A DNA stretch of 64,000 nt from an uncultured Candidatus Saccharibacteria bacterium (GCA_964386905.1 CAYLUP010000001.1:109660-173659); one strand, 5' to 3'; positions 5,600-53,717 are shown, counted from the stretch's first letter. Notes: a model not told the origin generated them from the letters alone. Made by a program: numbers and translations.

Positions 5600-6196
5600 A
5601 TGCATTACGAACCAAAAAATTTTACACATCTTCTCGGTATGAGTGGTTTTTCTGATGAACTCCTTCAAAATCACTTTACGCTGTATGAAGGTTATGTAAA
5701 AAACACGAATACACTCCAAGAGAAATTGCAAAACTTCCCACTTGATGAAACCCCACTTGTTGAACGATCGGAGTTGCAGCGACGATTTGGTTGGGAGTAT
5801 AACGGCATGAAACTCCATGAATACTATTTTGAAAACATGACTCAAAATGAGGGCACCCTTCCATCAACAGAACTCACCAATCATATTGCACATCATTTTG
5901 GTTCATTTGAACGCTGGAAACGCGATTTTGTCCAAATTGGTATGATGAGGGGAATTGGTTGGGTTCTTTTGGCCTGTGATGATGCTGGAGTTTTTCGAAA
6001 CACCTGGGTTAGTGAACATGATGGTGGACTTTTGGTGTCTCACAAGCCAGTGTTCGTGATGGACGTGTTTGAGCACAGTTATATACGAGAGTACGGTCTA
6101 AAAAAGGCCTCGTATATTGATGCGTTTTTTTCACATGCCAATTGGCACGTAGTTGAACAAAGAATTTCAAACGCATTGACTAAGACTGAAATATAG
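5600..6196 (+). CDS. sodA: Superoxide dismutase (Fe/Mn family)
   Basis: N-terminal helical-hairpin domain and C-terminal DVFEHSY (DVWEHAYY-type) motif; four metal-ligand positions alignable. Confidence 0.75.
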   Translation: MHYEPKNFTHLLGMSGFSDELLQNHFTLYEGYVKNTNTLQEKLQNFPLDETPLVERSELQRRFGWEYNGMKLHEYYFENMTQNEGTLPSTELTNHIAHHFGSFERWKRDFVQIGMMRGIGWVLLACDDAGVFRNTWVSEHDGGLLVSHKPVFVMDVFEHSYIREYGLKKASYIDAFFSHANWHVVEQRISNALTKTEI

Positions 6197-6225
6197 TGTA
6201 TTATATTCTATAATTTTTTTGACAT

Positions 6226-8922: not shown

Positions 8923-9016
8923 AGACACCCATAGGGTGTTTTTATGTTGATGGTAATAACTCAGCGGTGCAGGTGTATTCCAGAGAGATCAGAAGGCGAA
9001 ACAATGGAGGGGGTTG

Positions 9017-9087
9017 TCGGGATACCGAGAATCGAACTCGAGCATCACGCACCCGAAACGTGCATACTTCCACTATATTATATCCCG
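9017..9087 (-). tRNA. tRNA-Pro (anticodon CGG)
   Basis: Minus-strand fold: acceptor CGGGATA/TATCCCG, anticodon stem CACGT/GCGTG loop TTCGGGT (G37), T-arm TCGAG-TTCGATT-CTCGG. Confidence 0.75.
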
Positions 9088-9158
9088 TTCAATGTGTATT
9101 TTACAAAAACTCTATATGTAAGTAACGGAATGTACATTTTATGAAAAACATGTTATAA

Positions 9159-12152: not shown

Positions 12153-12560
12153 ATGTTTACATGGTATACTAATTGCATGTCCGTGTTCTCTCTTTTTCAA
12201 TCATATCTTCTTTGGCACTACGTCTATGCGGTTCGTGACGGATACGCACTTTTGAGAAATGCATTCTGGTTCATTGGAAGGATATTTTCTGTTCCCTTAC
12301 TCATTCGCACATTATTTTCCCCCTGGCATCGTCTTCATGAAGAAGTGCCGCGTTTTTTTGAAAACCCAGGAGAATTTTTTACCAATATCATCGTGAACAT
12401 CATTATGCGATGTGTTGGTTTCTCTGTCCGTTTCGCATACCTTCTCTTGGCATTCATGTTGTGCATTGTTATCGTCGCGTTTTGGATATGTGCTTTGCCG
12501 CTGTGGTATGCGCTACCTCTTTTGTCTACATTATTCTTCCTCGTACCGCTGTTTTTATGA
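12153..12560 (+). CDS. Polytopic membrane protein (135 aa), translationally coupled to downstream Clp-like ATPase
   Basis: 3-4 hydrophobic helices; stop TGA 12558-12560 overlaps ATG 12557-12559 of next gene (ATGA). Confidence 0.5.
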   Translation: MFTWYTNCMSVFSLFQSYLLWHYVYAVRDGYALLRNAFWFIGRIFSVPLLIRTLFSPWHRLHEEVPRFFENPGEFFTNIIVNIIMRCVGFSVRFAYLLLAFMLCIVIVAFWICALPLWYALPLLSTLFFLVPLFL

Positions 12561-15106
12561 TTTTTCAAATAACGCACAAGTACACAACACGGTTTTATTC
12601 TGCAGTATGCTCACTAGACAGAATTTTTTCTCCACGCGCACGCCATATTGTTTCTTGGAGTGCTGGATTTTTTGTTTTCGTTTTTTTGTGCTTGTCTGTT
12701 CTGATAGTCTGGGGACAGCTTGCTCTTCCTCCTTGGGCTTCTTTGTCACTTTCTTACCTCCTCGCTTTCGTTGATCATATCCCAGGTATTGATATTACAA
12801 ATGCAAGTTTTTTATATCGTTTACCAATTAGTGAACACTTTTCTGTTGCCTTTCCGTTTGTTTCAGGGCTTGGGTTTTGGAATATTATATTTGGGTTGAG
12901 TATTGCTACGTATCTTTATACAGCGTTGCTGACAATATTTGCGCGTTCTGCCTATTTTCAAGATCTTGCCTCAGCAGAGTTGTTTCATGAGCGTGTCCTT
13001 TCATATGTAGTTTCTGAAATTTTTCAACAAGCTGAAGAAGGTGACGTGCTCCGATCTTTTGTTCAACATCCAATTGGAAAGCACTTTTTTCAGCGTATTG
13101 AAGTGACACAGAGTGAATTGGGACAATTTCTTGTTACGCGAATGCACATCGTTGACTATCGTGAAGTCCCGAGTGTGTATCGTGTCCATACAATATCGGA
13201 ACTTATCCTTTCTCTCTGTCAATCTGAGGAAGTTGCGTTGTGGTTGCAGCGAAAGGGAATACATTCTGAAGATATTGCTATTGCGGCTTCGTGGGTTGAG
13301 TCAGAATATCGTATCCAAAAAGAACAAGAAAGGTGGTGGGGAAGAGAGGCGCTTGCGCGAATTCCTGTTTTTGGTGAGGAAATAGCATATGGATATGGAT
13401 TACTCATAAAAAAATTCACGACACCAGTGCTCCCGGTGGAGTCTCATCTCCGGTTTACGGGCGTAAGTGCGGAGGATCCTGTGGCACAATTACTGGAGTT
13501 ACTTCAACGCTCCGATGGGACAAATGCACTTATAATTTCCCCAAGTATTGCGCAGGGAATGGATATTATGCAGTCTGCGGTGGCTGAGATTTCTCGTTCA
13601 CAACATCCAAGATTTACACACAAAAAATGTCTTCTGTTCGACATTCCGTATTTTGAGCAACACGCAACTACTGTTAGCGAATTTGAGAGCATTCTTACGT
13701 CGATTCTTCTCGACGCACTCCGCTCGGGGAATTGCATACTTATTATTGACAATATTACCGCATTGATCCAGCGCGGACTTCTCCTTGGAGCTGATGTTGA
13801 CGGAATCCTCCGTCCCATTCTTGAATCAGCAGCTCTTCAAGTGATTGCACTTACGAGTATAGAGCAATTTCATGGACCTCTTTCTGCTCATCAGAATATT
13901 ACTCACGCATTTCATGAATTACACATTGAACAACTCTCTGATATCGAGCATCTTCGTAGACTTATTGTGTATGTAGAGCATCTTGAGCGTGAACAATCGG
14001 TACTCTTTTCAGTGCGTGCAGTGCACCAGATTATTACTGACGCAAATCGTGTTCGCACAAATCGCACACTTTTTGATCAGTCACGAGATATTCTTGCTGG
14101 CATCGTATCGACTACAGAGAAGAGTGCGCCACTCCTTATCACTAAAGATGATGTTGATGAATATGTTGCACAACACACACATATACCGATTGGCCCAACT
14201 GGCAAGGATGAAGAGATCCAGTTGCTCAACCTGGAGAAAGTCTTGCATCAATCTGTTGTTGGCCAAGATAAGGCTATCCATGCGATTTCTCAATCATTAC
14301 GAAGAAGTCGTTTGGGGTTACGTAATGAAAACCGTCCGATTGCCTCGTTCCTATTCTTTGGTCCAACTGGTGTAGGGAAAACAGAAGTCGCAAAAACAAT
14401 TGCGCGGGAATATTTTCATAGTGAAGAAAATATGCACCGTTTTGATATGACAGAATTTTCTGATCATACTGCTTTAGAACGCTTTATTGGTGGTGTAGAT
14501 TCCGGAGATGGTGCACTAGTGACCTGCCTTCTCGAGAGGCCATACGCGGTTTTGCTCCTTGATGAATTCGAGAAAGCGAACAGAAATATTCACGATCTCT
14601 TCTTGCAAATTATTGATGAAGGGTATTTCCATGATGTGAGTTCGAGAAAGATAAATTGTACAAATCTTGTGATTATTGCGACGAGCAATATTGCAGCGGA
14701 GGAAATCTATGCACACATCCGCAATGGAACAGTGCTTACAGATGTGCACGAAAGACAGTTAATTGCTCATACTATTGAACAAGGTCTTCTCAGGTCTGAA
14801 TTATTGAATCGATTTGATGAACTCATTTTGTTTCAGCCTCTGTCATCAGATGCATTGCGGCGTATTGCAGAGCTCATGCTATCGAAATTTGCAAAGCGTT
14901 TACTTGAAAAAGGAGTTGTGCTACAGATTAACGACGTTCTACTTCAATATCTGATGAGTCATGGAGTCGATCCCTTGTTTGGAGCACGTCCAATGCAGCG
15001 TGTTATTCAAAATAGTATCGAGCCTATCATTGCAGAGAAGCTTCTTCGGCACGAATTATCATCCGGTATGAGTTTTGCTTTTACAGAAGCTGATCTTCCA
15101 AAATAA
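12557..15106 (+). CDS. Membrane-anchored Clp/Hsp100-family AAA+ ATPase with degenerate NBD1 and intact NBD2
   Basis: N-terminal TM helices, Clp_N-like helical region, D1-like module lacking Walker A (SPSIAQGM where GEAGTGKT expected) but retaining D1 small-domain homology; D2 intact: [39 protein letters not shown] begins at 12410 but ATG at 12557 overlaps upstream stop. Confidence 0.75.
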   Translation: MIFQITHKYTTRFYSAVCSLDRIFSPRARHIVSWSAGFFVFVFLCLSVLIVWGQLALPPWASLSLSYLLAFVDHIPGIDITNASFLYRLPISEHFSVAFPFVSGLGFWNIIFGLSIATYLYTALLTIFARSAYFQDLASAELFHERVLSYVVSEIFQQAEEGDVLRSFVQHPIGKHFFQRIEVTQSELGQFLVTRMHIVDYREVPSVYRVHTISELILSLCQSEEVALWLQRKGIHSEDIAIAASWVESEYRIQKEQERWWGREALARIPVFGEEIAYGYGLLIKKFTTPVLPVESHLRFTGVSAEDPVAQLLELLQRSDGTNALIISPSIAQGMDIMQSAVAEISRSQHPRFTHKKCLLFDIPYFEQHATTVSEFESILTSILLDALRSGNCILIIDNITALIQRGLLLGADVDGILRPILESAALQVIALTSIEQFHGPLSAHQNITHAFHELHIEQLSDIEHLRRLIVYVEHLEREQSVLFSVRAVHQIITDANRVRTNRTLFDQSRDILAGIVSTTEKSAPLLITKDDVDEYVAQHTHIPIGPTGKDEEIQLLNLEKVLHQSVVGQDKAIHAISQSLRRSRLGLRNENRPIASFLFFGPTGVGKTEVAKTIAREYFHSEENMHRFDMTEFSDHTALERFIGGVDSGDGALVTCLLERPYAVLLLDEFEKANRNIHDLFLQIIDEGYFHDVSSRKINCTNLVIIATSNIAAEEIYAHIRNGTVLTDVHERQLIAHTIEQGLLRSELLNRFDELILFQPLSSDALRRIAELMLSKFAKRLLEKGVVLQINDVLLQYLMSHGVDPLFGARPMQRVIQNSIEPIIAEKLLRHELSSGMSFAFTEADLPK

Positions 15107-22503: not shown

Positions 22504-22636
22504 ATAAACAGTCGGGGTTTTGTACCATCGTGGTACAGTTACCCTAAAGCTCTTCAATGCAGCCCTGCATAACACATGATGTACTGTGTGGGGCTGGTCG
22601 CACCACTTACTGGTGCTCACAGGCCAAGGAGGCCAC

Positions 22637-23704
22637 ATGTTCAAGAACATCATTTTCGCGATCATCTTCGCGGTGATCGGGTCCATGAGCCTTCTGGCTC
22701 AGCCGAGCACCACGAGTGTTTCGGCCGGTGTCACCGACATTCCCGGGGCCTACCAGACCCTGGATGACATCACCGCCGCCTACAAGGCCGGTCACCTGGA
22801 GTACTACACTCCTCGTGACCCGCGTGGAAAGAACGTGAATGCCCCGGACGGGAAGAGAATTCTCGCCGCTCCCATGGGAAGGCTCACGTTCGCGGAGCTT
22901 CAGATCTTGGGCGGAAAGGCTTGGGTCGCAATCAAGCCGACGGATATCGTCCGTCGTCTTGCGGGCCGAACCACGCCTTTTGCTCTCGACTGGTGTGGGA
23001 ATCGGATCTATCGGATCGCATATCCGAATCCTCTCCCCACGCGTGAGCTGCCTCCTCCGGTCAAGCCCGAAGCTGGAACTGTCACCGTGAACAACGATGT
23101 CAATGTTCCAGTGCAGCCTGTCACTGAGGTGGTTGAACAAGGAGGAGATACGGTTGTCAACAATCGTATCACTCTCCCGGCCGCTTCTGCTCCCGTGGTC
23201 TACAGGAAGGGCAACGTAACGGTGAATAACCGCATCGTCGTTGCTCCCCCCCAGACTCAGGTTGGGCCTCCGGCCCCCGCCACTGTCGTTCGGCCGCTGC
23301 CTCCTCCCATCGTCGCTCCTTCGAGTGACCAGATGGGTCCGCAGGCTCCGCGCCTGCAGGTTCCTGCTCCCGCGCCCTACCAGCCTCAGCCCTACACCCC
23401 TGTGGTGAAGAAGGGTTGGTCGACCGGAACGAAGATCCTGTTTGGTGTTGGCATTGCTGGCGGTGCCTACCTTCTCTCCAAGGCCTTCAAAAAGGAAGAC
23501 AAGAATGGCCCCCCGAGCGGTGATACGCTTGGAGAGGGTGGCGCTCCCTCCGGTGGCCTTGCTGCCCCTCTCAAAATGGGGAGTGGCGACGCTGCGCTCC
23601 TGCGGAGCATGCAGGGGCAGGCATTTCGGCCTGGGTTCAACCCCGCCGAGTTCGCCGCCGCTAATGGCCGCGGTGTATATATTAGCATCGGCCGTCGGTT
23701 TTAG
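22637..23704 (+). CDS. GC-rich secreted/membrane protein: signal peptide, VTVNN-repeat beta region, proline-rich segment, one TM, short C-terminal tail
   Basis: Strong SD (ccaAGGAGGccac) then ATG 22637; signal peptide MFKNIIFAIIFAVIGSMSLLAQP; codon usage (GC-rich third positions) completely unlike neighbours; antisense ORF 22607-23725 is a GC-driven shadow. Confidence 0.7.
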   Translation: MFKNIIFAIIFAVIGSMSLLAQPSTTSVSAGVTDIPGAYQTLDDITAAYKAGHLEYYTPRDPRGKNVNAPDGKRILAAPMGRLTFAELQILGGKAWVAIKPTDIVRRLAGRTTPFALDWCGNRIYRIAYPNPLPTRELPPPVKPEAGTVTVNNDVNVPVQPVTEVVEQGGDTVVNNRITLPAASAPVVYRKGNVTVNNRIVVAPPQTQVGPPAPATVVRPLPPPIVAPSSDQMGPQAPRLQVPAPAPYQPQPYTPVVKKGWSTGTKILFGVGIAGGAYLLSKAFKKEDKNGPPSGDTLGEGGAPSGGLAAPLKMGSGDAALLRSMQGQAFRPGFNPAEFAAANGRGVYISIGRRF

Positions 23705-23752
23705 ACGGCCGCAGGCAAAACGCATGAGGATTTTCCCTCTGCTAGTACTATC

Positions 23753-23819: not shown

Positions 23820-23917
23820 TATATTGCATATCACGATATTTCCTTGTAGAACTTGGAATATCTGTGAAAGGTATTATTAATACGCCGAAAGGCACAGAAC
23901 ACAACAAAAAAATTATT

Positions 23918-26446
23918 ATGTCTACACTCAAGAAAATTTCAGCACTCTTTGCACTTGCTGCTGCTTTCTTCCTTGCGGGAACGCACGGAGTATTTGCTGC
24001 AACATGTGACTCTGCATTGCTTAATGGGTACGTCAATCCAAATGGCTATCCGACTCAGGCGTGGTTCGAATACGATACCAATAGTTCTGATGTTTCAAAT
24101 GGAAATGGAACGAAAACTGCGAAGCAGACTTTTTCTGTTCCTTCATATTATAAGCAATCAATCACCGGGCTTTCAGAGAATACTACATACTATTACCGAG
24201 CTGCTTTCTCTAATCAGGCTGGTACTGCGTATGGCAGTGTAAAGTCATTTCAGACACTCGATTGTTCAGATCAGGGTGGTGATGCACCAGAAGTAACAAC
24301 AAATGCAGCAACAAATGTGCAGGATACTTCTGCAACGTTGCGCGGATATGTTGATGTAAACGGATCAGATGATACGGTTCGCTGGTTTGAGTGGGGTCGC
24401 TCTTCTAGCGATCTTGATCGGACAACGAGCCGCATATCGATGTCAGATTCGGGGAGTGTTTCTGTGTCGATTTCAGACCTCTCACCAAATACTCGCTACT
24501 ACTTTCGTTTACATGCAGAGAATGACGCAGGTTCAGACTCTGGAAGTACACTATCCTTCACAACTTCTGATGATGGTGGATCAGATGATGATTTACCCGA
24601 AGCCCGCACTCGGTCTGCATCAGACATTGATGAAGATTCAGCAACACTCAACGGATATATTGATACAAATGGAACAGATAACGTAGAGCGTTGGTTTGAG
24701 TGGGGCCGATCTTCTTCAGATCTCGATCGCACAACTTCTCGCTCAACAATTTCAAGCTCACGTGATGTGTCAGCGTATATTTCCGGACTTGACGAAGATA
24801 CAACGTACTACTTCCGTGTTGTTGCACGCAATGACGCAGGAACTGTGCGTGGAAGCACGTACTCATTCCGAACTGACGATAATGGTTCAGGTGATGACGA
24901 TGATCTTCCTTCAGTTTCGACACGATCAGCGACAAACATCAATTCAACTTCTGCGACATTGAATGGGTACGTGAATACAAATGGGACTGATGATGTGGAA
25001 CGTTGGTTTGAGTGGGGGCGTTCTTCCTCAGATCTTGATAACACCACATCCCGAAATTCGATTGGATATTCCGGTGATGCATCGGCATATATTTCCGGTC
25101 TGAATTCAAACACAACCTATTATTTTCGTATCGTAGCTCGCAATGATGCTGGCACTGTGTATGGGTCTGTATATTCATTTACAACACGCGGAAGCGGTGG
25201 TGGTGACAACGGAGACGCTCCAATAGTGACAACACGATCTGCAACATCTGTTACAACCAATACTGCGACACTCAATGGACACGTCGATGCAAATGGTGGT
25301 TCAGATACATCTGCATGGTTTGAGTGGGGGACGACAGAGAGCATGACAAATGTCACAACACGTCGCAATCAGGGTGATTCGTCAGCAAATATTTCTGCTG
25401 CTCTTACTGGCCTTCGTGCAGATACTGTGTATTATTTCCGTGCTGTTGCACAGAATAGCCGTGGCACGTCGCGTGGAACAATGTATACATTTACCACAGC
25501 ACGCTCTGGTGGCGGTTCACAGGGGCAAGTTCCGACAGTGATCACAACGCTTCCGACGAATATCACAGGATATTCTGCAACATTCAACTCCTTGATTCTA
25601 CAGAGTGGAAACTCATCATCAGAAGCATGGTTTGAGTGGGGATCATCTGAGGCCCTCGGACGTCGAACATCAACAAAGAGTGTTGGCTCAGCACCTTCTT
25701 TGCGTCATACAGAGACAGTGAACGAATTGACGCCGGGTGTAACATACTATTACCGTATCGTTGCGGAAAATCAGTATGGTCGTAATTATGGAACACTTCA
25801 GAAATTCGTTACTCGTTCTTCTGTCGTAACCCCACCACCAACACCTAAGCCAACTCCTAAGCCAATACCAAAGCCAGTTCCGGTTCCAACACCAAAACCA
25901 ACTGTGGTATACGCTGAAGGGGTGAATAGCTTGGTTATGTTGACGATTGTTGGCGAAGAAGAGGGTGTTTCTAAAAATGAACAACAAACCTATACGATTA
26001 CATGGCACAACAAAAGCGAACAGACATTGAAAGATGTTGTCTTGCGTATCATGATTCCAGCACAGTTGTCGTTTATTAGTGCAGATGATGGACAATACTC
26101 AACAACAGATGGTATTCATACACTTGAACTAGGAACCCTTAAGGGCTCTGAGACAGGTGAATTGAACATTGTCTTGAAGGGAAGTCAGGTATTGGTCCCA
26201 GGTGACCTTATTGTAACAACAGCAAATCTTGTCTATACAGATGAGTCGAATGTACAGGGTGACGCTCTCGCATATGTAACGCAGCGCGGTGAAGCCGGTG
26301 GGTCAGTCCTCGGTGCAAGCGCAGCAGGAGGAGCATTCCCATATGTTCTCTTAGGTTGGCTTCTCTTAATTATTCTTCTCATCATCTTGGTTATCTTGAG
26401 TCATCACTTATACAAGCGATTATCTCAGAAGAATACGCAAGCGTAA
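23918..26446 (+). CDS. Large cell-surface protein: signal peptide, six tandem ~90-aa Fn3-like (WFEWG...YYFR) repeats, Pro/Thr/Lys linker, DUF11-like beta domain, C-terminal TM anchor
   Basis: Repeat consensus T-x-SATLNGYV-x-NG-x-D-x-WFEWG-SSS-LD-TTSR...NTTYYFR-VA-NDAGT-GS-SF-T repeated 6x; TPPPTPKPTPKPIPKPVPVPTPKPT linker; C-terminal LLGWLLLIILLIILVIL; start at MSTLKKISALFALAAAFFLAGTHGVFA. Confidence 0.8.
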   Translation: MSTLKKISALFALAAAFFLAGTHGVFAATCDSALLNGYVNPNGYPTQAWFEYDTNSSDVSNGNGTKTAKQTFSVPSYYKQSITGLSENTTYYYRAAFSNQAGTAYGSVKSFQTLDCSDQGGDAPEVTTNAATNVQDTSATLRGYVDVNGSDDTVRWFEWGRSSSDLDRTTSRISMSDSGSVSVSISDLSPNTRYYFRLHAENDAGSDSGSTLSFTTSDDGGSDDDLPEARTRSASDIDEDSATLNGYIDTNGTDNVERWFEWGRSSSDLDRTTSRSTISSSRDVSAYISGLDEDTTYYFRVVARNDAGTVRGSTYSFRTDDNGSGDDDDLPSVSTRSATNINSTSATLNGYVNTNGTDDVERWFEWGRSSSDLDNTTSRNSIGYSGDASAYISGLNSNTTYYFRIVARNDAGTVYGSVYSFTTRGSGGGDNGDAPIVTTRSATSVTTNTATLNGHVDANGGSDTSAWFEWGTTESMTNVTTRRNQGDSSANISAALTGLRADTVYYFRAVAQNSRGTSRGTMYTFTTARSGGGSQGQVPTVITTLPTNITGYSATFNSLILQSGNSSSEAWFEWGSSEALGRRTSTKSVGSAPSLRHTETVNELTPGVTYYYRIVAENQYGRNYGTLQKFVTRSSVVTPPPTPKPTPKPIPKPVPVPTPKPTVVYAEGVNSLVMLTIVGEEEGVSKNEQQTYTITWHNKSEQTLKDVVLRIMIPAQLSFISADDGQYSTTDGIHTLELGTLKGSETGELNIVLKGSQVLVPGDLIVTTANLVYTDESNVQGDALAYVTQRGEAGGSVLGASAAGGAFPYVLLGWLLLIILLIILVILSHHLYKRLSQKNTQA

Positions 26447-35195: not shown

Positions 35196-36413
35196 ATGCT
35201 TCGATTTGAAATAACAAAACGGTTTGGAAAACTTGGAAGAACGGGGATTATCCATACCCCTCATGGAAAAATTCAGACTCCTGCATTTATAACCGTTGGG
35301 ACAAAAGCGACTGTCAAGGCTCTGACTCCTGAAATGGTAAAAAGCCTTGGAGCACAAGCAACACTCGAAAATACATATCACTTATATTTGCAACCAGGAG
35401 ACGATGTTGTGTGTGATGCGGGAGGAGTTGCAAAATTTATGCATTGGGACGGTCCGACCTTTACAGACTCAGGAGGATTTCAAGTCTTCTCTTTAGGTGC
35501 CGCATTTGGAAAAGGTGTTTCGAAGGTTGCCTCTGGTGAGAATTCAGATATGAGTGAAGATGGGAGGTCTCGTCCGCAGACCACGCATGCTGCGCTTGCA
35601 CACATTGATGAAGAGGGTGTTTCGTTTAAATCTCATATTGACGGGAGTGCACATCGCTTCACTCCTGAAAAATCCATGGAAATCCAGCATAATCTTGGTG
35701 CAGATATTACGTTTGCATTTGACGAGTGCACATCCCCACACGATCCAGAAGACTATCAAGTAGAGGCGTTAGATCGAACACACCGTTGGGCAAAACGCTC
35801 GCTTGCGCGGCACGAGCAACTTGGTGTGTCTTCTGCAACAGGGAAACAGCAGGCATTGTATGGTGTTGTTCAGGGGGGAAAGTATAAAAACCTGCGTGAA
35901 TATTCTGCAAAGACTCTTGGGGAAATGGATTTCGATGGATATGGTATAGGCGGATCGTTCAATAAGGAGGATATTGGGACTGCAGTTGCATGGGTGAATG
36001 CAGTTCTTCCTGAGGATAAGCCGCGTCACCTTCTTGGGATTGGTGAACCAATTGACCTTTTTCTTGGATGTGAAAATGGTGTTGATACATTTGACTGCGT
36101 CGCTCCGACTCGTTTAGGGAGGAATGGGGGAGCATATACAAGAGAAGGAAGAATCAATTTACGTAACGCACAATACGTAAAAGATCTTGCACCGATTGAT
36201 GAGAAGTGCCCTTGTTATACCTGTACGCATTATACAAAAGCGTACGTTGCACACCTCTTTCGTGCAGAAGAAATGCTCGCCGCAACGTTACTTTCTATCC
36301 ATAATTTGTATTTTATTACACGTCTCGTTGATGAAATTCGAGTACACATGGAGACGGGGGCAGGATATGATGAATTTAAAAGGAATTTCCTTCAAGGATA
36401 CTATAAAACATAG
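35196..36413 (+). CDS. tgt: Queuine tRNA-ribosyltransferase (tRNA-guanine transglycosylase)
   Basis: TPAFITVGTKATVK, catalytic Asp regions, zinc site CPCYTCTHYTKAYVAHL. Confidence 0.9.
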   Translation: MLRFEITKRFGKLGRTGIIHTPHGKIQTPAFITVGTKATVKALTPEMVKSLGAQATLENTYHLYLQPGDDVVCDAGGVAKFMHWDGPTFTDSGGFQVFSLGAAFGKGVSKVASGENSDMSEDGRSRPQTTHAALAHIDEEGVSFKSHIDGSAHRFTPEKSMEIQHNLGADITFAFDECTSPHDPEDYQVEALDRTHRWAKRSLARHEQLGVSSATGKQQALYGVVQGGKYKNLREYSAKTLGEMDFDGYGIGGSFNKEDIGTAVAWVNAVLPEDKPRHLLGIGEPIDLFLGCENGVDTFDCVAPTRLGRNGGAYTREGRINLRNAQYVKDLAPIDEKCPCYTCTHYTKAYVAHLFRAEEMLAATLLSIHNLYFITRLVDEIRVHMETGAGYDEFKRNFLQGYYKT

Positions 36414-36473
36414 ATATACCCAGGAATATTTTCTTTCGCTATTACTCTAGAATAATTACGGTACAATAGGAAT

Positions 36474-36845
36474 ATGAAAAAGCTGGTTATTGCATGTGTG
36501 CTGTTACTCCCAATATCTCTTTTTGCACAATCCGTAGATTATGACTGTGAAGGAAAGGGTGTTATTTGTAATCCCCTAATTCACCAGACTGTTAATGGAG
36601 AACAAGTAGAAACGCTTCCACAGTTGTTAAACTTCCTTCTCGACTTGCTCGTTCGTGTGTCTATACCAATTATTACTGTCGCTATTATTTGGACTGGTTT
36701 TGTCTATGCTACCTCTAAGGGTGATCCTACAAAGCTAAAAAAAGCTCATGCAATGGCATTATATATTGTTCTTGGCGCAGGACTTGTTTTTCTGTCAAAG
36801 GGTCTGCAGCTCGCCATTCAATCAACAATAGATACATTGAAATAG
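36474..36845 (+). CDS. Small secreted two-TM-helix protein, VirB2/TrbC pilin-like topology (paralog 1 of 6)
   Basis: Sec signal peptide (..SLFAQS), Cys pair, then hydrophobic hairpin IPIITVAIIWTGFVYATSKGD...AMALYIVLGAGLVFLSKG. Confidence 0.6.
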   Translation: MKKLVIACVLLLPISLFAQSVDYDCEGKGVICNPLIHQTVNGEQVETLPQLLNFLLDLLVRVSIPIITVAIIWTGFVYATSKGDPTKLKKAHAMALYIVLGAGLVFLSKGLQLAIQSTIDTLK

Positions 36846-36846
36846 T

Positions 36847-37185
36847 ATGAATAAATTTTCTCTCGTTATCGTGTTCATTTCATTTCCAGCACTTGCCGTT
36901 GCTGCGAATTTTCGAGATGCTGCTGAGTTCGCACTTGGGGTTGTTTCGACACTAATGCAAACGTTATTTGCTTTTATTTCCTTGGGGATTATATATACAG
37001 TATATAGGTATATTTCGGCTGTTAGGAAAGGAGATAAAGACGCCGTACGGTTTCGCTCAATGCTCATATGGGCTATTGTCGGGCTTGCAGTTGCCTTTGC
37101 GTTGTGGGGGATTATCACGCTTCTGGCAAATACTCTTGGATGGTCGAATGTTGGAATCCCACAGTTAAAAGCACCTACACTTTAG
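36847..37185 (+). CDS. Small secreted two-TM-helix protein, VirB2/TrbC pilin-like (paralog 2)
   Basis: Signal peptide (..ALAVAANF) then FISLGIIYTVYRYISAVRKGDKD...MLIWAIVGLAVAFALWGIITLL. Confidence 0.6.
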   Translation: MNKFSLVIVFISFPALAVAANFRDAAEFALGVVSTLMQTLFAFISLGIIYTVYRYISAVRKGDKDAVRFRSMLIWAIVGLAVAFALWGIITLLANTLGWSNVGIPQLKAPTL

Positions 37186-37188
37186 CCT

Positions 37189-37542
37189 ATGACAAAACGT
37201 ATTTTCTATTTGTTTAGTCTCTCAATTTTCATTTTTCCAGTTATTGTTTTTGCCGCACCTGGAGATAATGTACAGTCGCTTTGGTCATATGCAATGACGA
37301 TTATTCAACGCCTCACACAGTTGTTTTGGGTGCTCTCTGTGATGACTTTTTTGTGGGGCTTGATTGATTATCTTCGAAAACAAGATTCTCCTGCCGAGCA
37401 GGCGAAAGCAAAGCAATTGATGATTCACGCAGTTATTGCTTTTACGATTGCAGTGTCATTTTGGGCATTCGTATCATATGTTATTCGATCTGCAAATCTT
37501 GATGCTGGGCAACAATCAATTCCTAAGGTATATGCAAAATAA
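37189..37542 (+). CDS. Small secreted two-TM-helix protein, VirB2/TrbC pilin-like (paralog 3)
   Basis: Signal peptide (..VIVFAAPG) then VLSVMTFLWGLIDYLRKQDSP...LMIHAVIAFTIAVSFWAFVSYV. Confidence 0.6.
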   Translation: MTKRIFYLFSLSIFIFPVIVFAAPGDNVQSLWSYAMTIIQRLTQLFWVLSVMTFLWGLIDYLRKQDSPAEQAKAKQLMIHAVIAFTIAVSFWAFVSYVIRSANLDAGQQSIPKVYAK

Positions 37543-37567
37543 AAAACTCCTTACGGAGTTTTTTTAT
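37541..37567. terminator. Bidirectional hairpin terminator (aaaaaactccttacggagttttttt) between convergent paralogs 3 and 4
   Basis: Palindrome flanked by A-run and T-run. Confidence 0.7.
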
Positions 37568-37938
37568 TATCTGTCGATAACATCAGGGATAACATTGCTG
37601 ATGTTGTCTGGTGTACCAGCCACTTCAAGAGTTTGGTTGTCGAGGCCAACTGTTTTTGAAACATAACCAAGAATGCTCCAAATTCCTACCATAAGGAAGA
37701 GGGCAACGCCTGAGTTCACCATGATCTGTTTTCCTTGCTTTTTAAGTTCTGCATTTTCTGCATTCTGGATGAACTTGATAAGACCCCAGAAAAAGAATGC
37801 GACTGCAAGTGGAACTGCAATACCAAGGAAAAAATTGAGTACACGTTTAATTGTGTCGAGCGTGTCGTCGAGTGGTGTCTGCGCCGATGCAATAAATGGC
37901 ATTGCAAGCACTGCTGCAAAAATATATCGTTTATACAT
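37567..37938 (-). CDS. Small secreted two-TM-helix protein, VirB2/TrbC pilin-like (paralog 4, opposite strand)
   Basis: Start at MYKRYIFAAVLAMPFIASAQTP (signal peptide) then FLGIAVPLAVAFFFWGLIKFIQNAENAE...IMVNSGVALFLMVGIWSILGYV. Confidence 0.55.
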   Translation of the reverse strand: MYKRYIFAAVLAMPFIASAQTPLDDTLDTIKRVLNFFLGIAVPLAVAFFFWGLIKFIQNAENAELKKQGKQIMVNSGVALFLMVGIWSILGYVSKTVGLDNQTLEVAGTPDNISNVIPDVIDR

Positions 37939-38056
37939 AAGTAATGTAATACTAATAATCAATTGATTACTCTTATAGTATACGGTGTTGATAGCGCATT
38001 GGAAAGGATGTTGTCCACAGTGCGATGATATAAAATGGTTGTGATATACTATAAAC

Positions 38057-38401
38057 ATGAAAAAAAGTGCGATTCCGCTGGCGTTTTCCATGATTGCCGT
38101 ATTGCCTCAGATTGTTTTAGCGGTCGAAATTACTCATTCAGTCAGTAGCTTTATGGGGAAGGTGTACGAAAATATCGTTAACCCAGCGATAACTGTTTTA
38201 TTCGCAATTGCAATTTTATACCTCTCCTGGTCGGTTTTTCAATATACATTTCAAGGAGATAAGGTAGACAAAGACAAACTCAAGGCCTCACTCATCTATG
38301 GTGTCCTTGGTGTGTTTATTATGTCAACGGTGTTTGCAATTGTGAAATTTATTGCGACTTCAGTTGGTGGTGATGCAAACAGTGTAATGAACAGCATTTA
38401 A
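38057..38401 (+). CDS. Small secreted two-TM-helix protein, VirB2/TrbC pilin-like (paralog 5)
   Basis: Signal peptide (..IVLAVEI) then ITVLFAIAILYLSWSVFQYTFQGDKVDKD...LIYGVLGVFIMSTVFAIVKFI. Confidence 0.6.
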   Translation: MKKSAIPLAFSMIAVLPQIVLAVEITHSVSSFMGKVYENIVNPAITVLFAIAILYLSWSVFQYTFQGDKVDKDKLKASLIYGVLGVFIMSTVFAIVKFIATSVGGDANSVMNSI

Positions 38402-38414
38402 ATATGATAATCGT

Positions 38415-38783
38415 ATGATGAAATATATCTTTACTGTAACGGCATATTCCTTGGTTCTGTGTTTTCCAGTATTTACATTCGCAGCAGGCCAAAATCTTGA
38501 TTCAACATTTTCCTACATCTTTAACATTCTCGAGAAGATCTCTCAAATGCTCATTCCAGCTGGTTTTCTCTTCTTCCTTTTCCGAATGATGCGATTTATG
38601 AAGGATTCTCATTCTGGATCAACCGATCTCGCCAAGAGCAAGAGCATGCTGATTTGGTCAGCGATAGCATTATTTTTTATGGTAGGGATCTGGTCAGTTG
38701 TTGCATATGTTCAAGGAACAGTATTTGGTGGAAACATGCAAAGTGATATTACCAATCGTCCAGCACTTCCGACTTCTCTTTAA
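38415..38783 (+). CDS. Small secreted two-TM-helix protein, VirB2/TrbC pilin-like (paralog 6)
   Basis: Signal peptide (..VFTFAAGQ) then MLIPAGFLFFLFRMMRFMKDSHSGS...MLIWSAIALFFMVGIWSVVAYV. Confidence 0.6.
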   Translation: MMKYIFTVTAYSLVLCFPVFTFAAGQNLDSTFSYIFNILEKISQMLIPAGFLFFLFRMMRFMKDSHSGSTDLAKSKSMLIWSAIALFFMVGIWSVVAYVQGTVFGGNMQSDITNRPALPTSL

Positions 38784-38822
38784 TCCAATACAAAAAGCCC
38801 CGCAATATGCGGGGCTATATGA

Positions 38823-39935
38823 TTATCGTGCTATAAGGACAATTCCGATGCGATTGTTCCCCGAATAGAGGTCAATCTGCATCTGGCCATCCGTGCGACC
38901 GAGGAACTGTCCGGAGACATTTCCTTGTCTCCACGTTCCGGAGCAGGAGCTCCCACGCACAATCCCTTCAAGGATTACGTGTTCGGCGCCTTGTGGGGCA
39001 ATGACCGTGAGCAGAATTCTTGATGAAGTAATTTGCCCTGTTGTATGAGTTTCGACTTCTCCCATTCCAAGGAAGGAGAGTGGTTCTTGAACTCCAACAA
39101 CCTCGGTTTTGAGATAATCGTCTCCATGAGTTGGTGCGAGAGAGGGCTCTACCTGGGGCTGGGGCTGCGACTGAATCTCGGATTTTTCAATCCGAAATCG
39201 TTCAGCAGCACCATCTTCACTCACGACAGCAATGGGCCCATCGCTATCAAGGTATTCCCCCTCAATGGGGCGAGCGGCAGTGATGCTTCCATGCAGAGAG
39301 CTGCGCGCTGCAAGGTTTTGTGCGCGCTCTTTTTCAAGACGCTCGCGTCGCACCGTATCAATCTTCTTCAGGAAGTTTAGCTTCTGATCCCAAAGAATCA
39401 TGATATGGGTGCCAAGACTGATGCGCTTGTCTCCAATCTTTGCATGCCAGAAACCAATGAGAATAATGGCAGCAATGACGATTCCAAGAATCGGCTTAGA
39501 CTTCTCCCAAACCGCTTTCATCAGTTTTGTTGTTTCTGTTTCTGCCTGTTGTGCTGTCATCCAGCTCATCCCCGCGCTTGCAATAAGAAGCAGGAGAAGT
39601 GCTGCAATTCCACTCAGGACAGGTGCTCTATCAAAGGGTAGGGTGATGAGTGCTATCCACCCAATCGTGTGATAAGCGACTGGACGTGCGGCTGCTCTCT
39701 TTTTGTCAGGGTCACTTCCAAAAAGACTAGAGGTAGCAGCGACGATAATAATCAGAAGGGTTGAGAGTAGGGTAAGAAGAAAGAGCGTACCCATGTCTTC
39801 ATATCCAGTTGCAAATTTCAGCCCGACTGCCGAAATGAGCAAAATGACATAAAGAATGAGCAAGGCAATTCCCCAGCCAGACTTCAGGTACTTGAGATCA
39901 AACCCTGTTGTGGTGCTCGGCGTCTCATCGGCCAT
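38823..39935 (-). CDS. Polytopic integral membrane protein (about 6 TM) with C-terminal soluble domain; function unknown
   Basis: Good SD (taggagctacATG) upstream; multiple hydrophobic helices in first 200 aa; hairpin terminator on its strand at 38793-38817. Confidence 0.55.
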   Translation of the reverse strand: MADETPSTTTGFDLKYLKSGWGIALLILYVILLISAVGLKFATGYEDMGTLFLLTLLSTLLIIIVAATSSLFGSDPDKKRAAARPVAYHTIGWIALITLPFDRAPVLSGIAALLLLLIASAGMSWMTAQQAETETTKLMKAVWEKSKPILGIVIAAIILIGFWHAKIGDKRISLGTHIMILWDQKLNFLKKIDTVRRERLEKERAQNLAARSSLHGSITAARPIEGEYLDSDGPIAVVSEDGAAERFRIEKSEIQSQPQPQVEPSLAPTHGDDYLKTEVVGVQEPLSFLGMGEVETHTTGQITSSRILLTVIAPQGAEHVILEGIVRGSSCSGTWRQGNVSGQFLGRTDGQMQIDLYSGNNRIGIVLIAR

Positions 39936-40076
39936 GGTAGCTCCTATAATTGTGAAGGAAAGGACGGTTTTTGGGCTACTATCGTTCTACCATACAATTT
40001 CCATTATGGCAAGTATAATCCTAATATATACAAAATGGCTTAAATAGGCTATGATTTGACGGCAGAAAACAGATTT

Positions 40077-40157
40077 GCCCGGGTGGTGAAATGGTAGACA
40101 CGCCTGCCTTAGGAGCAGGTCTCGCAAGAGGTGGAGGTTCAAGTCCTCTCCCGGGCA
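40077..40157 (+). tRNA. tRNA-Leu (anticodon TAG), class II
   Basis: Acceptor GCCCGGG/CCCGGGC, anticodon stem CCTGC/GCAGG loop CTTAGGA, long variable arm, T-arm GGAGG-TTCAAGT-CCTCT. Confidence 0.9.
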
Positions 40158-40163
40158 CAGTCC

Positions 40164-40194
40164 AAAAATCTCAGTTTTTAAACTGAGATTTTTG
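40164..40194 (+). terminator. Hairpin terminator after tRNA-Leu (aaaaatctcagttt ttaa aactgagattttt)
   Basis: Perfect palindrome with A/T runs. Confidence 0.7.
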
Positions 40195-40244
40195 TTTACT
40201 GTGACCTGGGAAGCAAGTGCCTCAAAAAGGCACTTGCGTGAGGG

Positions 40245-40425
40245 CTTGAAAAGTCCTAAATCATAGTCGTGTGCAAAGCCATACTCCGTGTTCAGGATAA
40301 ACTCCGCCAAGCCCGCAGTGAGTCTTCGGGATAATCTTGAAAAGTCCTGAATCATAGTCGCGATAAGAATCGCTCCTCGTTCAGGATAAGCTCCGTCAAT
40401 TCCGGAGTGAAGCCTCGAGTGAGGA
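40245..40425. repeat. Two tandem imperfect ~90-bp direct repeats in a 550-bp non-coding region (possible sRNA/regulatory element)
   Basis: Both units start cttgaaaagtcct(a/g)aatcatagtcg and share ttcaggataa(a/g)ctccg; variable inserts form different local hairpins (gcgataagaatcgc; ctccgtcaattccggag). Confidence 0.6.
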
Positions 40426-40787
40426 CTGGTGGGTAACACACGCAGATTTATAATGAAGGAAGTGTATATACAGAAGTGCCATGAACCAAGATTCTTTCTG
40501 TGTATTAAAGTCACCATACCTATGTTACAAAAAAGCACGCAACATGCCTACGTGCTGACTGATCAGTAACAAAAGGGTGCTGTCTCTACCGGTGGAAGAA
40601 AGGTGCCTGCACGAACAAGAACATAAATGCACCACCGCACATGGAAGCTGCAATTCGCCCAGCCTTGAAAAAGAAATAATTGACCAATACCGACCTTGTG
40701 TAAATCCGGCTCAATTAAGCCTAGAAATACAAGAAATCCCTTGACCTTTTTAAAATAGTTTGCTAATATATATAGACCGAATCCAGA

Positions 40788-48931: not shown

Positions 48932-50224
48932 ATGTTCACAAAAAAGTCCTTTTTGAAGTATCAATTATATGCAGGGATCCTTGCGCTTGTGGTAGGCGCA
49001 AGTTTTTCAGTATCTCATCGTGCAATAGCACAGACCGCTACGGCGATTCAGGATAAAATCGAAAACCACAAAGACTCACTTGAAAAGCTAAATGAAGAAA
49101 TCGGACAATTAAAAAATCAGATTGATACGATTGGCAAGCAAAAAAAGACCCTCCAGAATGAAATAAAAAGTATAGAACTTGTCCGGCAAAAAATACAAAA
49201 AGAGGCAGAAATTACTAGAATTAAAGCACAACGGACAAATACTGCAATTTCATCTTTAGAAAGAAGCATTAAGGATAAACAGCTCGCGGTCGCTCGCCAA
49301 AAAGAGGCTGTAACATTTGCAATACAGCGTATTGCAGAATATGATAACCGCTCCATGCTTGAAATGCTTCTTTCCGCCGATTCACTTTCCGATGCGTTTG
49401 AGGAGGCTGACCAGCTGGAGCAGGTACAATCTTCGTTTGTAGAGCACATGAGAACACTCCAGGGTCTTACGAAGGATCTTGAAACAGATAAAATACGTCA
49501 ACAAGAGGAACATAAAAAAGCAAAAGCGTATTCGAAAGAACTTACCGAACAAGAAGGACTCGTTAATGAAAAAAAACTAGAGCGCACAGCTCTTGTAAAG
49601 GAAACCAGTAATAAAGAGTCGCAATACCAAGCGCAGCTTGCAGAAAAAGAAAGAAGAAAAAAACAGTTTGAGCAAGAGCTCCAGCAATTTGAAGCAAGCT
49701 TGAAAGCAAGTGTTGATTCAACAACATTTCCAAAGGCAGGTACAAAAGTATTCCTTATGCCTATTGCGAGTACTCGAATTACTCAACATTTTGGCTATAC
49801 CGCTGCAGCAAAGTATCTGTACGCTTCAGGAAAACACTCAGGGACAGATTTTGCCGCACAGGTTGGTACTCCGGTGGTATCAGTTGCACCTGGTATCGTT
49901 GAGGCTACGGGAGATACGGATATCGCATGTCGTGGTGCTTCTTATGGTAAATATGTCTATGTAAAGCACAAAAATGGCCTCTCTACGCTGTATGCACACT
50001 TGAGTCGAATATCGGTCGCACAGGGTCAGGAAGTCGGCGCACAAGAGCTCCTGGGCTATTCTGGGAATACAGGATACTCAACTGGACCGCACTTACACCT
50101 TGGGTTGTACGTGTCCTCAGCAACGAAGGTAGACAATGTGCCGAGCCAATCCTGTCGTGGTGCAGTATTTCGAATGCCTGTTGCACCAAAAGAAGCATAC
50201 CTTGATTTTGAGAACTATATCTAA
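48932..50224 (+). CDS. M23-family metallopeptidase with N-terminal coiled coil (EnvC-like murein hydrolase activator/peptidase)
   Basis: Signal/TM then ~250 aa coiled coil, C-terminal M23 domain HSGTDFAA...GNTGYSTGPHLHLGLY. Confidence 0.85.
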   Translation: MFTKKSFLKYQLYAGILALVVGASFSVSHRAIAQTATAIQDKIENHKDSLEKLNEEIGQLKNQIDTIGKQKKTLQNEIKSIELVRQKIQKEAEITRIKAQRTNTAISSLERSIKDKQLAVARQKEAVTFAIQRIAEYDNRSMLEMLLSADSLSDAFEEADQLEQVQSSFVEHMRTLQGLTKDLETDKIRQQEEHKKAKAYSKELTEQEGLVNEKKLERTALVKETSNKESQYQAQLAEKERRKKQFEQELQQFEASLKASVDSTTFPKAGTKVFLMPIASTRITQHFGYTAAAKYLYASGKHSGTDFAAQVGTPVVSVAPGIVEATGDTDIACRGASYGKYVYVKHKNGLSTLYAHLSRISVAQGQEVGAQELLGYSGNTGYSTGPHLHLGLYVSSATKVDNVPSQSCRGAVFRMPVAPKEAYLDFENYI

Positions 50225-52514: not shown

Positions 52515-53717
52515 TTACTGTGTACTTTCACCGATAACAATATACTTTCTATTCCAGTCTTTATTTAAGAGTAATCTTGAAACAAAATGTGGCTTTTCCT
52601 GACGATAAAGTGATTCTGGGTCAAACAGATACAATCCCTGAATATCACCTGAATGAGTCTCTGCGTAGCCAACTGCAAGAACAAGGTGTGGACGTTTAAT
52701 ACCAAAAAGTTGTTTTGCTACTGAAAGTATGACGAGATTTCCTTTTTTGAGTTCCCAGACAACATCATCTATAATTCCACCCTCTGTGCGATATCCGGAG
52801 AGCCCATATGAGGTCGCCATATCTACTATGCCTTGATGATACCACCCGAATGACTCTGTGAAATATCCTTTTTCTTTTGCTGTTGAGCATAGTGTCTCAA
52901 TTGAAGATATGGGTTTGTAAAAATGATCTAAAATCATTGCAAGGCAGACGCCCCCACATGCCCTATTCGTCCAATATGGATTCGAAATATCAAGAAGTTG
53001 AGAAAAGTAATGAACTGAATGAATATGCTTTTGGTACCCAATTTTTTCCCCATGTGCGAGGTAATGAAGCAGATTGTGTGTGGAGTATAGGTCAGTTCTA
53101 TCCTGTGGAATAGTAACGCAGTATCTAGGCTCATTCATCTCCCCCATCCTTCGATATCCGACAATGTGGCGAAACGATGGTGCAGCATCAAGGTCTTGTA
53201 CATACGTGCCATTGATAGAACGACTCGAATGGAGCACTTTGCCTTCTCCGAGATAGATGCCGACATGATCAACGCCCTCAGGAACAACCGTGCCGTGCCT
53301 CCATTCGATTGATGCGTAGTGGATCTTCCCTTCTCCTGAGTTTGAAAATATCAAATCGCCATATTGAAGATCACCTTTTTGTATCTCCTCAAGAAAAATA
53401 TATTTATCTACAGTAATGGATGGCATCCATGAAAGTCCTGCAACAGTTGCAATATAGCTCACAAGGGAAGAGCAAGAAAATGCATTTGGGGCATCTTTTT
53501 GCATGATTGACGGGTTTTTGTACGCTGAGCCAATAAGTGTAGGGACTACATTTTCAATACGAGCACGTGGTGTTTTGAACGTAAATTGAAAATTATTTTG
53601 CTGAAGTGCGTACACGATATCATCATGCGACACGGTGTTTCCAAAGAACGCCTTTGCATCGTCAAGAGAAAAACCAATTTTATATTCCCAGGACATACTA
53701 TATAGAACCTTGAGCAA
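52515..53717 (-). CDS. Two-domain cysteine peptidase: N-terminal NlpC/P60-like + C-terminal peptidase-C39-like domain
   Basis: NlpC/P60 Cys/His context (FSCSSLVSYIATVAGL ... HVGIYLGEGKVLHSS) and second papain-like module with CGGVCLAMIL catalytic-Cys context. Confidence 0.55.
   Translation of the reverse strand: MLKVLYSMSWEYKIGFSLDDAKAFFGNTVSHDDIVYALQQNNFQFTFKTPRARIENVVPTLIGSAYKNPSIMQKDAPNAFSCSSLVSYIATVAGLSWMPSITVDKYIFLEEIQKGDLQYGDLIFSNSGEGKIHYASIEWRHGTVVPEGVDHVGIYLGEGKVLHSSRSINGTYVQDLDAAPSFRHIVGYRRMGEMNEPRYCVTIPQDRTDLYSTHNLLHYLAHGEKIGYQKHIHSVHYFSQLLDISNPYWTNRACGGVCLAMILDHFYKPISSIETLCSTAKEKGYFTESFGWYHQGIVDMATSYGLSGYRTEGGIIDDVVWELKKGNLVILSVAKQLFGIKRPHLVLAVGYAETHSGDIQGLYLFDPESLYRQEKPHFVSRLLLNKDWNRKYIVIGESTQ

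Follow-up and report, generated by a model that had tools for sequence, protein, structure and literature searches.

Positions 36474-38783 of a 64-kb stretch of DNA (64,000 nucleotides of contig CAYLUP010000001.1, assembly GCA_964386905.1; hereafter the window) carry an array of six adjacent small genes, five on the plus strand and one on the minus strand, whose products – here named P1 to P6 – are very probably pilin-like proteins of the VirB2 superfamily, of the array type known from Patescibacteria. Comparison with related genomes indicates that this hexad of distinct proteins is ancient and has stayed fixed, and that it is not a recent diversifying expansion. The array is bounded on one side by tgt (35196-36413) and on the other by a convergent open reading frame (ORF) for a membrane protein, M370, which represents a small orphan family and is a conserved neighbour of these pilin arrays. 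A first-pass annotation of the window, made from the sequence, had recognised six paralogous small genes of VirB2/TrbC-pilin type; all six ORFs are indeed present (112-123 aa) and the assignment to pilins is borne out by the family profiles described below.

Evidence for the assignment came firstly from curated protein families. PF18895 (T4SS_pilin, where T4SS denotes type IV secretion system) is the top Pfam match for each of the six paralogs and, in the case of P6, the sole Pfam match; its gathering score of 26.6 bits is reached by P4 (41.6 bits, E 1.3e-10), P3 (34.4 bits, E 2.3e-8) and P1 (27.0 bits). P1 also passes PF04956 (TrbC/VirB2), scoring 29.6 bits with a gathering score of 27.9 bits; P5 reaches 17.7 bits with the same profile and the other four are without a match. 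The NCBIfam models for pilin-like conjugal-transfer proteins are the best weak matches for P3, P4 and P5, the highest being P4 with NF045849, a family from Mycoplasma integrative and conjugative elements (ICEs), at 32.8 bits and under the 40-bit cutoff. Precomputed Pfam marks on orthologs in other genomes agree with the pilin assignment. The array moreover falls within the operational definition of a VirB2 array used by Quinonero-Coronel et al. 2025 (PMC12102498), namely 2-11 genes of low mutual identity matching PF04956 or PF18895 at i-E<0.001 with >50% profile coverage, arranged in tandem or with one non-pilin gene between: the genes here are contiguous, share 15-33% identity, and all but P6, the E-value of which is 0.0023, combine a whole-protein E<0.001 with >50% profile coverage.

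Searches beyond these profiles returned little. PHROGs gave no match for any of the seven proteins (P1-P6 and M370), and neither P1 nor P4 matched any of 72,556 plasmids by tblastn. When solved structures were searched by sequence, with the pilin profile or P1 as query, only compositional transmembrane matches came back (G-protein-coupled receptors, a K+ channel), and structure searches found only generic helical or transmembrane matches. Given these generic structural matches and the lack of a plasmid match, the link to canonical pilins is carried by the curated profiles, not by pairwise or fold similarity.

The architecture of the proteins is in keeping with the profiles. P1-P6 all begin with an N-terminus rich in K and R, followed by a hydrophobic h-region; a conserved Pro precedes an x-x-A cleavage-type site by about six residues (sites were read from the -3/-1 pattern), and hydropathy and alignment place two hydrophobic segments on either side of a short polar loop. 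The leader plus two hydrophobic helices that characterise PF18895 are seen in hydropathy, in the alignment and in an AlphaFold 2 (AF2) model of P4. The last, a monomer prediction of the sort the first-pass annotation had suggested, was built from an 18-sequence alignment (mean predicted local distance difference test score, pLDDT, 70.7; hairpin ~80) and has a signal helix at residues 3-20, hairpin helices at 23-58 and 63-96, and a disordered tail. The shared signal peptide, hairpin and polar loops that had been noted earlier thus stand, P1 for example having the loop S-K-G-D-P; the helix-1 Trp, described as conserved, is found in only four of the six. Paralogy itself is clear. Pairwise identities among the six lie between 15 and 33%, with P1 the outlier, BLASTP E-values between paralogs fall as low as ~1e-15 (P3/P6 and P4/P6, the latter 2e-15), and a profile built from the six matches exactly six ORFs across the 64-kb window.

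P1 carries a further feature of its own. Residues 25-32 (window 36540-36575), in the mature N-terminal segment, form a Cys-x(2-6)-Cys-(L)-N-(T)-P-L motif that recurs in P1-type proteins of four other genomes (L083, L085, L092 and L094, introduced below) and is absent from a fifth (L089). The motif suggests that the product of the array's first gene, alone among the six, may contain a loop closed by a disulfide bond.

The arrangement of the genes is given in Table 1. Gaps of 1 bp (P1-P2), 3 bp (P2-P3) and 13 bp (P5-P6) are such that P1-P2-P3 and P5-P6 look like two small operons, with P4 a single gene divergent from P5 across 118 bp. The start of P4 was assigned to the ATG at 37938 (MYKRY...), the 174-aa ORF that reaches 38091 being an upstream extension. 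Promoters for both directions are presumed to lie between P4 and P5; sigma-70-like matches at 37930-37959 (+), which begins just within the P4 start, and 38005-37977 (-) are not above chance. The first-pass annotation had credited the genes with their own bidirectional terminators. Only two terminators occur in the cluster, both at convergent gene ends, and the number of terminators in the region does not exceed shuffled expectation.

Table 1. Features of the pilin-like array and its surroundings (window positions unless a related locus is named).
Feature	Coordinates	Strand	Description
P1	36474-36845	+	ORF, 123 aa; most divergent paralog, TrbC/VirB2-like
P2	36847-37185	+	ORF, 112 aa; pilin-like paralog, same operon as P1
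P3	37189-37542	+	ORF, 117 aa; pilin-like paralog
Bidirectional hairpin terminator	37541-37564	both	Between convergent P3 and P4; 10-bp stem, flanked by A-run and T-run
P4	37567-37938	-	123 aa; pilin-like paralog, best family match of the six
P4/P5 divergent intergenic region	37939-38056		118 bp, from gene geometry
P5	38057-38401	+	ORF, 114 aa; pilin-like paralog
P6	38415-38783	+	ORF, 122 aa; pilin-like paralog, closest paralog P4
GC-rich hairpin terminator	38796-38816		Between convergent P6 and M370; 9-bp stem, 7 G-C pairs; inverted repeat I9
M370	38823-39935	-	ORF, 370 aa; convergent to P6
tRNA-Leu(tag)	40077-40158	+	Confirmed
PG_binding_1 gene, L083	11585-12673		
PG_binding_1 gene, L085	11624-12685		
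PG_binding_1 gene, L092	8408-9472		
PG_binding_1 gene, L003	11300-11749		

A central issue is whether the six genes are interchangeable variants or distinct components. When orthologs of P4 and homologs of M370 were looked up as exact proteins, the same locus emerged in seven further genomes: L083 (GCA_027330905.1), L085 (an ENA groundwater assembly), L087, L088, L089/L090, L091 (GCA_013573125.1) and L092 (GCA_035583355.1). The locus is complete in the window, L083, L085, L089 and L092, and partial in L087, L088 and L091. In all five complete loci the pilin-like genes number exactly six and run P1-P2-P3-P4(inverted)-P5-P6, the partial loci fit the same order, and P4 orthologs are always inverted relative to the other five genes. 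Genes at equivalent positions are 37-59% identical, while cross-matches between the window and its relatives do not exceed 41%, save for one of 43% between the P6-type protein of L089 and P4. By position, identity to the orthologs is 37-43% for P1 (L083, L085 and L089; the L092 counterpart scores 181 bits with the P1-group hidden Markov model, HMM), 53-59% for P2, 41-46% for P3, 48-58% for P4, 45-56% for P5 and 39-44% for P6. The pilins of L092 were likewise assigned one-to-one, by group-specific HMMs. No lineage-specific duplication, loss or gene-conversion tract was found in the complete loci.

The first-pass annotation had taken the multiplication of the genes as a sign of diversifying selection. 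On such an account the six would be interchangeable variants, serving antigenic or host-range variation, a role suggested for VirB2 paralogs in Bartonella and Anaplasma, and there are observations that fit: with 37-59% identity between orthologs the pilins change faster than most of their neighbours (TGT 77%, ROK 82%, RpoA 92%, S11 99%; PGI, at 50%, is comparable), and it is the N-terminal mature segment and the C-terminal tail, predicted to be exposed, that vary most within ortholog groups. Versatility in adaptation to hosts has also been raised as a possibility for Patescibacteria arrays, with the tandem VirB2 genes of Bartonella and Anaplasma cited as the analogy (PMC12102498). Against this, the hairpin helices are the most conserved part of each protein, the complete loci do not differ in copy number, order or orientation, and every paralog has its own ortholog in every related genome recovered. 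Identities of 15-33% between paralogs place their divergence at ancient splits. Redundancy is further disfavoured by Southlakia epibionticum ML1: in the transposon-sequencing (Tn-seq) table of Wang et al. 2023 (PMC10633639), each of the pilins visible there is marked as essential. We therefore regard ongoing diversification as distinctly improbable: fixed one-to-one orthology argues against continuing duplication and for six distinct roles.

Relatives at greater distance extend the picture only in part. In the arrays of L093 and L094 the P1 type alone is clearly distinct; it is the first gene of the array and keeps both a Cys...Cys-N-P-L-like motif and a loop of the K-G-[DN]-P type. L093 also encodes, at 5625-6419, a 264-aa fused double pilin with two T4SS_pilin/TrbC-like domains, in what is a more distant Patescibacteria array. 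A search anchored on tgt among GTDB species representatives found one syntenic locus in 80 (L003), the contig of which stops 534 bp past tgt within a peptidoglycan-binding gene; in none of the other loci did the six-paralog profile detect a pilin close to tgt. The assemblies of the relatives are not listed in the supplements of PMC12102498.

In all syntenic relatives a secreted PG_binding_1 protein (353-362 aa) is encoded between tgt and the first pilin gene. An ortholog is absent from the window by tblastn, only 60 bp (36414-36473) lying at that position, and the distant array of L093 is flanked by two PG_binding_1 proteins. The recurrence hints that such proteins may be cell-wall-binding companions of pilin arrays.

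The second component of the locus is M370. The first-pass annotation had pointed to it as a candidate partner of the pilins, and the ORF proved to be a genuine conserved neighbour: linkage of M370 to the array is seen in eight genomes including the window, and all members with retrievable context (L083, L085, L087, L088, L089, L091 and L092) are convergent to the last pilin gene. M370 has four to five predicted membrane helices at its N-terminus – not the six originally counted – after which come a charged helix, a variable linker and, at the C-terminus, a conserved beta-rich domain in which the alignment reveals a G-[ST]-W-[RH]-Q-G motif. It has no match in Pfam or NCBIfam, no family recurs when eight members are compared with Pfam at E<=1, and an exhaustive HMMER scan of 1.84 billion representatives yielded only six at E<1e-3, with five relatives among them. 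The L083 ortholog (365 aa; 8029-9126, plus strand, contig DAHVZP010000020.1) is intact; two deposited minus-strand calls of 127 and 232 aa that lie over it are antisense artefacts.

M370 was also compared with the VirB6/TrbL platform proteins, for which the marks considered were similarity to TrbL/VirB6 or PrgH profiles, at least five transmembrane helices and a large extracytoplasmic loop. By these marks it does not belong with them: neither M370 nor any of seven homologs matches such a profile in Pfam or NCBIfam even at E<=1, the helices number four to five, and the hydrophilic domain is C-terminal, not central. The resemblance to 'extended VirB6' proteins is one of outline – a transmembrane bundle plus a hydrophilic domain, encoded beside pilin genes.

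The array is flanked by housekeeping genes: those for glycogen and sugar metabolism (GT, GH57, GH15, PGI, ROK), tgt, the infA-rpsM-rpsK-rpsD-rpoA cluster, and genes for FtsW, MurG, tRNA synthetases, a histidine kinase and two ClpB-like ATPases. TGT and other flanking genes find their matches in Patescibacteria/Paceibacterota MAGs (metagenome-assembled genomes): identity of TGT is 77% with a MAG labelled 'bacterium' and 61-64% with Taylorbacteria and Paceibacteria MAGs, and one syntenic relative is labelled Candidatus Paceibacterota. By these matches the organism is a Paceibacteria-like member of the Patescibacteria, in agreement with the reduced-genome bacterium envisaged earlier. Every ORF of at least 400 aa in the window is housekeeping, and no VirB4-, VirD4- or VirB11-like ATPase is among them, as the first-pass annotation had observed.

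What, then, might the array do? We consider it probable, if by no means assured, that the array and M370 represent six VirB2/TrbC-superfamily pilin-like genes plus a lineage-specific membrane protein that would together contribute to a T4SS-assembled structure. The mechanism takes as its models the VirB2-type pilins and the array of six pilins in S. epibionticum that is reported as essential. The proteins would be exported by Sec and cleaved by signal peptidase, leaving the hairpins in the cytoplasmic membrane; a VirB4-powered T4SS of monoderm type, encoded elsewhere in the genome, would extract the hairpins and build from them a heteromeric structure, either pilus-like or lining a channel. 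Each of the six would have its own, non-interchangeable role, the P1 type being the most distinct, and their variable N-terminal segments and C-terminal tails would be the exposed parts of a structure serving contact or exchange with a host cell. M370 may, as a weak proposal, be an assembly, anchoring or platform factor.

Several observations weigh against a T4SS-assembled structure. PF18895 stays below its cutoff in P5 (24.8 bits, E 2.4e-5), P2 (20.5 bits, E 5e-4) and P6 (18.4 bits, E 2.3e-3), but the profile is nonetheless their top match and all three are significant paralogs of members that pass. Neither VirB4, VirD4, VirB6, PrgI nor TrsD is encoded in the 64-kb window, and no T4SS gene lies within 10 kb of the array in L083, L085, L089, L092, L093 or L094; the co-encoded VirB4 with VirB3 or VirB6 that would identify a VirB2-type pilin by its neighbours is missing both from the window and from these 10-kb surroundings in relatives. 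Dependence on a T4SS is consequently a matter of analogy. M370 has no detectable similarity to VirB6/TrbL or to any other family, and its AF2 model, from a six-sequence alignment, is unusable (pLDDT 44.6). According to a review (PMC12857230), a T4SS pilus has yet to be seen in any member of the Patescibacteria, and the role of the T4SS has been called 'completely unknown' (PMC11665869).

The same observations invite the notion that P1-P6 together with M370 make up a stand-alone complex of the membrane or surface, independent of any T4SS, the likeness to VirB2 reflecting shared ancestry or a simple fold. No linked T4SS gene occurs in the window or in eight related loci, the pilins are always accompanied by their own polytopic membrane protein, a secreted peptidoglycan-binding protein often flanks such arrays in place of T4SS parts, and monoderm T4SSs are otherwise without pilins (PMC12102498). 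Patescibacteria at large point the other way. The T4SS cluster of S. epibionticum itself contains pilins from this Pfam family, and the two are reported as essential together (PMC10633639). Pilin genes are found near virB4 in 1,135 of 1,948 assemblies that have both (~58%), and 2,474 virB4 genes were counted in the 3,035-genome dataset (PMC12102498); with VirB4 in most surveyed Patescibacteria, it is probably present here too. On balance we judge autonomy from a T4SS rather unlikely. We also think it unlikely that the locus encodes a fixed seven-component apparatus peculiar to this Paceibacteria lineage, in which the six paralogs would occupy defined positions and M370 would replace VirB6, perhaps without VirB4; such an apparatus could take the form of a heteromeric filament or membrane conduit, comparable to systems of major and minor pilins.

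A different class of explanation invokes mobile or antagonistic elements: secreted bacteriocin- or holin-like peptides with M370 as immunity or export partner, or a genomic island at the adjacent tRNA-Leu. The first-pass annotation had raised bacteriocin-like peptides and named the tRNA gene as an integration landmark, and tandem genes for small, secreted, hydrophobic proteins with a tRNA gene nearby do give the idea some appeal. However, searches of Pfam, NCBIfam and PHROGs link none of the proteins to a family of bacteriocins, holins or immunity factors, their leaders are of Sec type with no double-glycine leader in the window, and the window has housekeeping neighbours and neither an ABC exporter nor other transporter or immunity genes to go with them. 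As to an island, there is no integrase in the window, no att-like repeat of the tRNA flanks the array, no RNA family was found around the tRNA, and GC content is unexceptional (0.40-0.45 for the array, slightly below the window mean; the window is typically 0.40-0.46). The locus is instead syntenic in relatives, between tgt and the infA-rpsM-rpoA cluster, which contradicts the island reading. Nor does the tRNA keep station with the array. Its counterparts in L083 (7497-7578) and L085 (7432-7513) are in the opposite orientation, as a minus-strand match of 87 bp with 88.5% identity, and in L089 there is no tRNA-Leu near the array module; infA and M370 stay collinear, and the difference is a small local inversion of the tRNA-Leu. 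We rejected the bacteriocin, holin and island readings, the chance of which we put as very slight.

The 630-bp spacer between tRNA-Leu and infA, which neither matches Rfam nor has an equivalent in L083 or L085, contains two direct copies of a ~90-nt unit (40245-40417; a 25-nt core 96% and a 45-nt core 78% identical). A 183-aa ORF that spans the repeats and overlaps the tRNA (39987-40538, minus strand) is probably spurious.

Elsewhere in the window several genes merit record. Two 372-aa ORFs, 22586-23704 (+) and 22607-23725 (-), overlap fully in antisense within a segment of high GC (0.53 versus ~0.43) and match nothing in Pfam or Rfam; the plus-strand product has the look of a signal-anchored surface protein rich in Pro, Val and Ala, with a C-terminal hydrophobic segment. 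The two ClpB-like proteins, each of 898 aa (6226-8922 and 12410-15106), are encoded 3.5 kb apart, and in the second only the C-terminal AAA_2 and ClpB_D2-small domains are matched, the N-terminal half being divergent or novel. A set of envelope-related genes includes one for an 860-aa protein that carries DUF11 and several FN3/PhoD_N-like repeats (23864-26446), and, at 48932-50224 and 52515-53717, a Peptidase_M23 protein and an NlpC/P60 plus Peptidase_C39-like protein. These are candidates for surface adhesion or cell-wall hydrolysis and could stand in for an activity of VirB1 type.

Few systems have been shown to be indispensable to the epibiotic life of a cultivated member of the Patescibacteria, and the T4SS with its pilin array is one of them. 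That the same number of pilins is kept in a different class, as a stable and individually conserved set, favours a heteromeric structure with distinct subunit roles over antigenic variation. The locus further demonstrates that an array need not be linked to the T4SS core at all, and it brings forward an orphan membrane-protein family, M370, as a candidate accessory factor. What is added here is thus the one-to-one orthologous hexad in a second class, its unlinking from T4SS genes and the M370 partner: useful constraints for modelling or dissecting the apparatus that leave the published picture unchanged.

In relation to canonical conjugative pilins – VirB2 of the Agrobacterium T-pilus, TrbC of RP4 and TraA of F – the array proteins share a cleaved leader, two hydrophobic helices and a short polar or basic loop, and P1 passes the gathering score of their Pfam family, PF04956. 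The leaders of VirB2 and TraA are long, whereas those of the array proteins are short (~19-23 aa). The mature array proteins are longer (~90-104 aa), with disordered C-terminal tails; they belong to a monoderm host, are encoded in six copies, not one, and away from virB3 and virB4, and show no pairwise similarity to plasmid-encoded proteins in the tblastn searches with P1 and P4. Members of NF045849 (Mbov_0395/MMCAP2_0565) are, like the array proteins, small hairpin proteins of wall-less or monoderm bacteria; in contrast to the hexad they are single-copy genes in ICE conjugation modules, and P3 and P5 match the model more weakly than P4, all three below 40 bits. The VirB2 paralogs of Bartonella and Anaplasma are also multiple, divergent and tandem, but they are read as antigenic or host-range variants, whereas one-to-one orthology here argues for fixed and distinct roles.

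The closest likeness is to the arrays of Patescibacteria themselves. Scanning with PF04956 and PF18895 uncovered 441 VirB2 arrays of 2-11 genes in 383 assemblies (PMC12102498), and the subject has been reviewed, with speculation about a conduit to the host (PMC12857230). The prototype is that of S. epibionticum, in which a predicted pilin series of six PF18895 genes, SEML1_0014-0019, lies beside VirB6-like, VirB4 and PrgI genes inside an essential T4SS cluster (PMC10633639). The array of the window shares with these the phylum, the PF18895 family (with or without PF04956), the size class, the signal-peptide-plus-hairpin architecture and a tandem arrangement of paralogs with low identity (~25% on average there, 15-33% here); with S. 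epibionticum it shares also the number six. It differs from SEML1_0014-0019 in lying outside a T4SS cluster, between tgt and infA-rpsM-rpoA in a Paceibacteria-like lineage, in having one gene inverted, and in adjoining a 370-aa orphan membrane protein in place of a recognisable VirB6-like protein of ~1,100 aa. The kind of locus to which it belongs, including arrays situated away from virB4, is already described.

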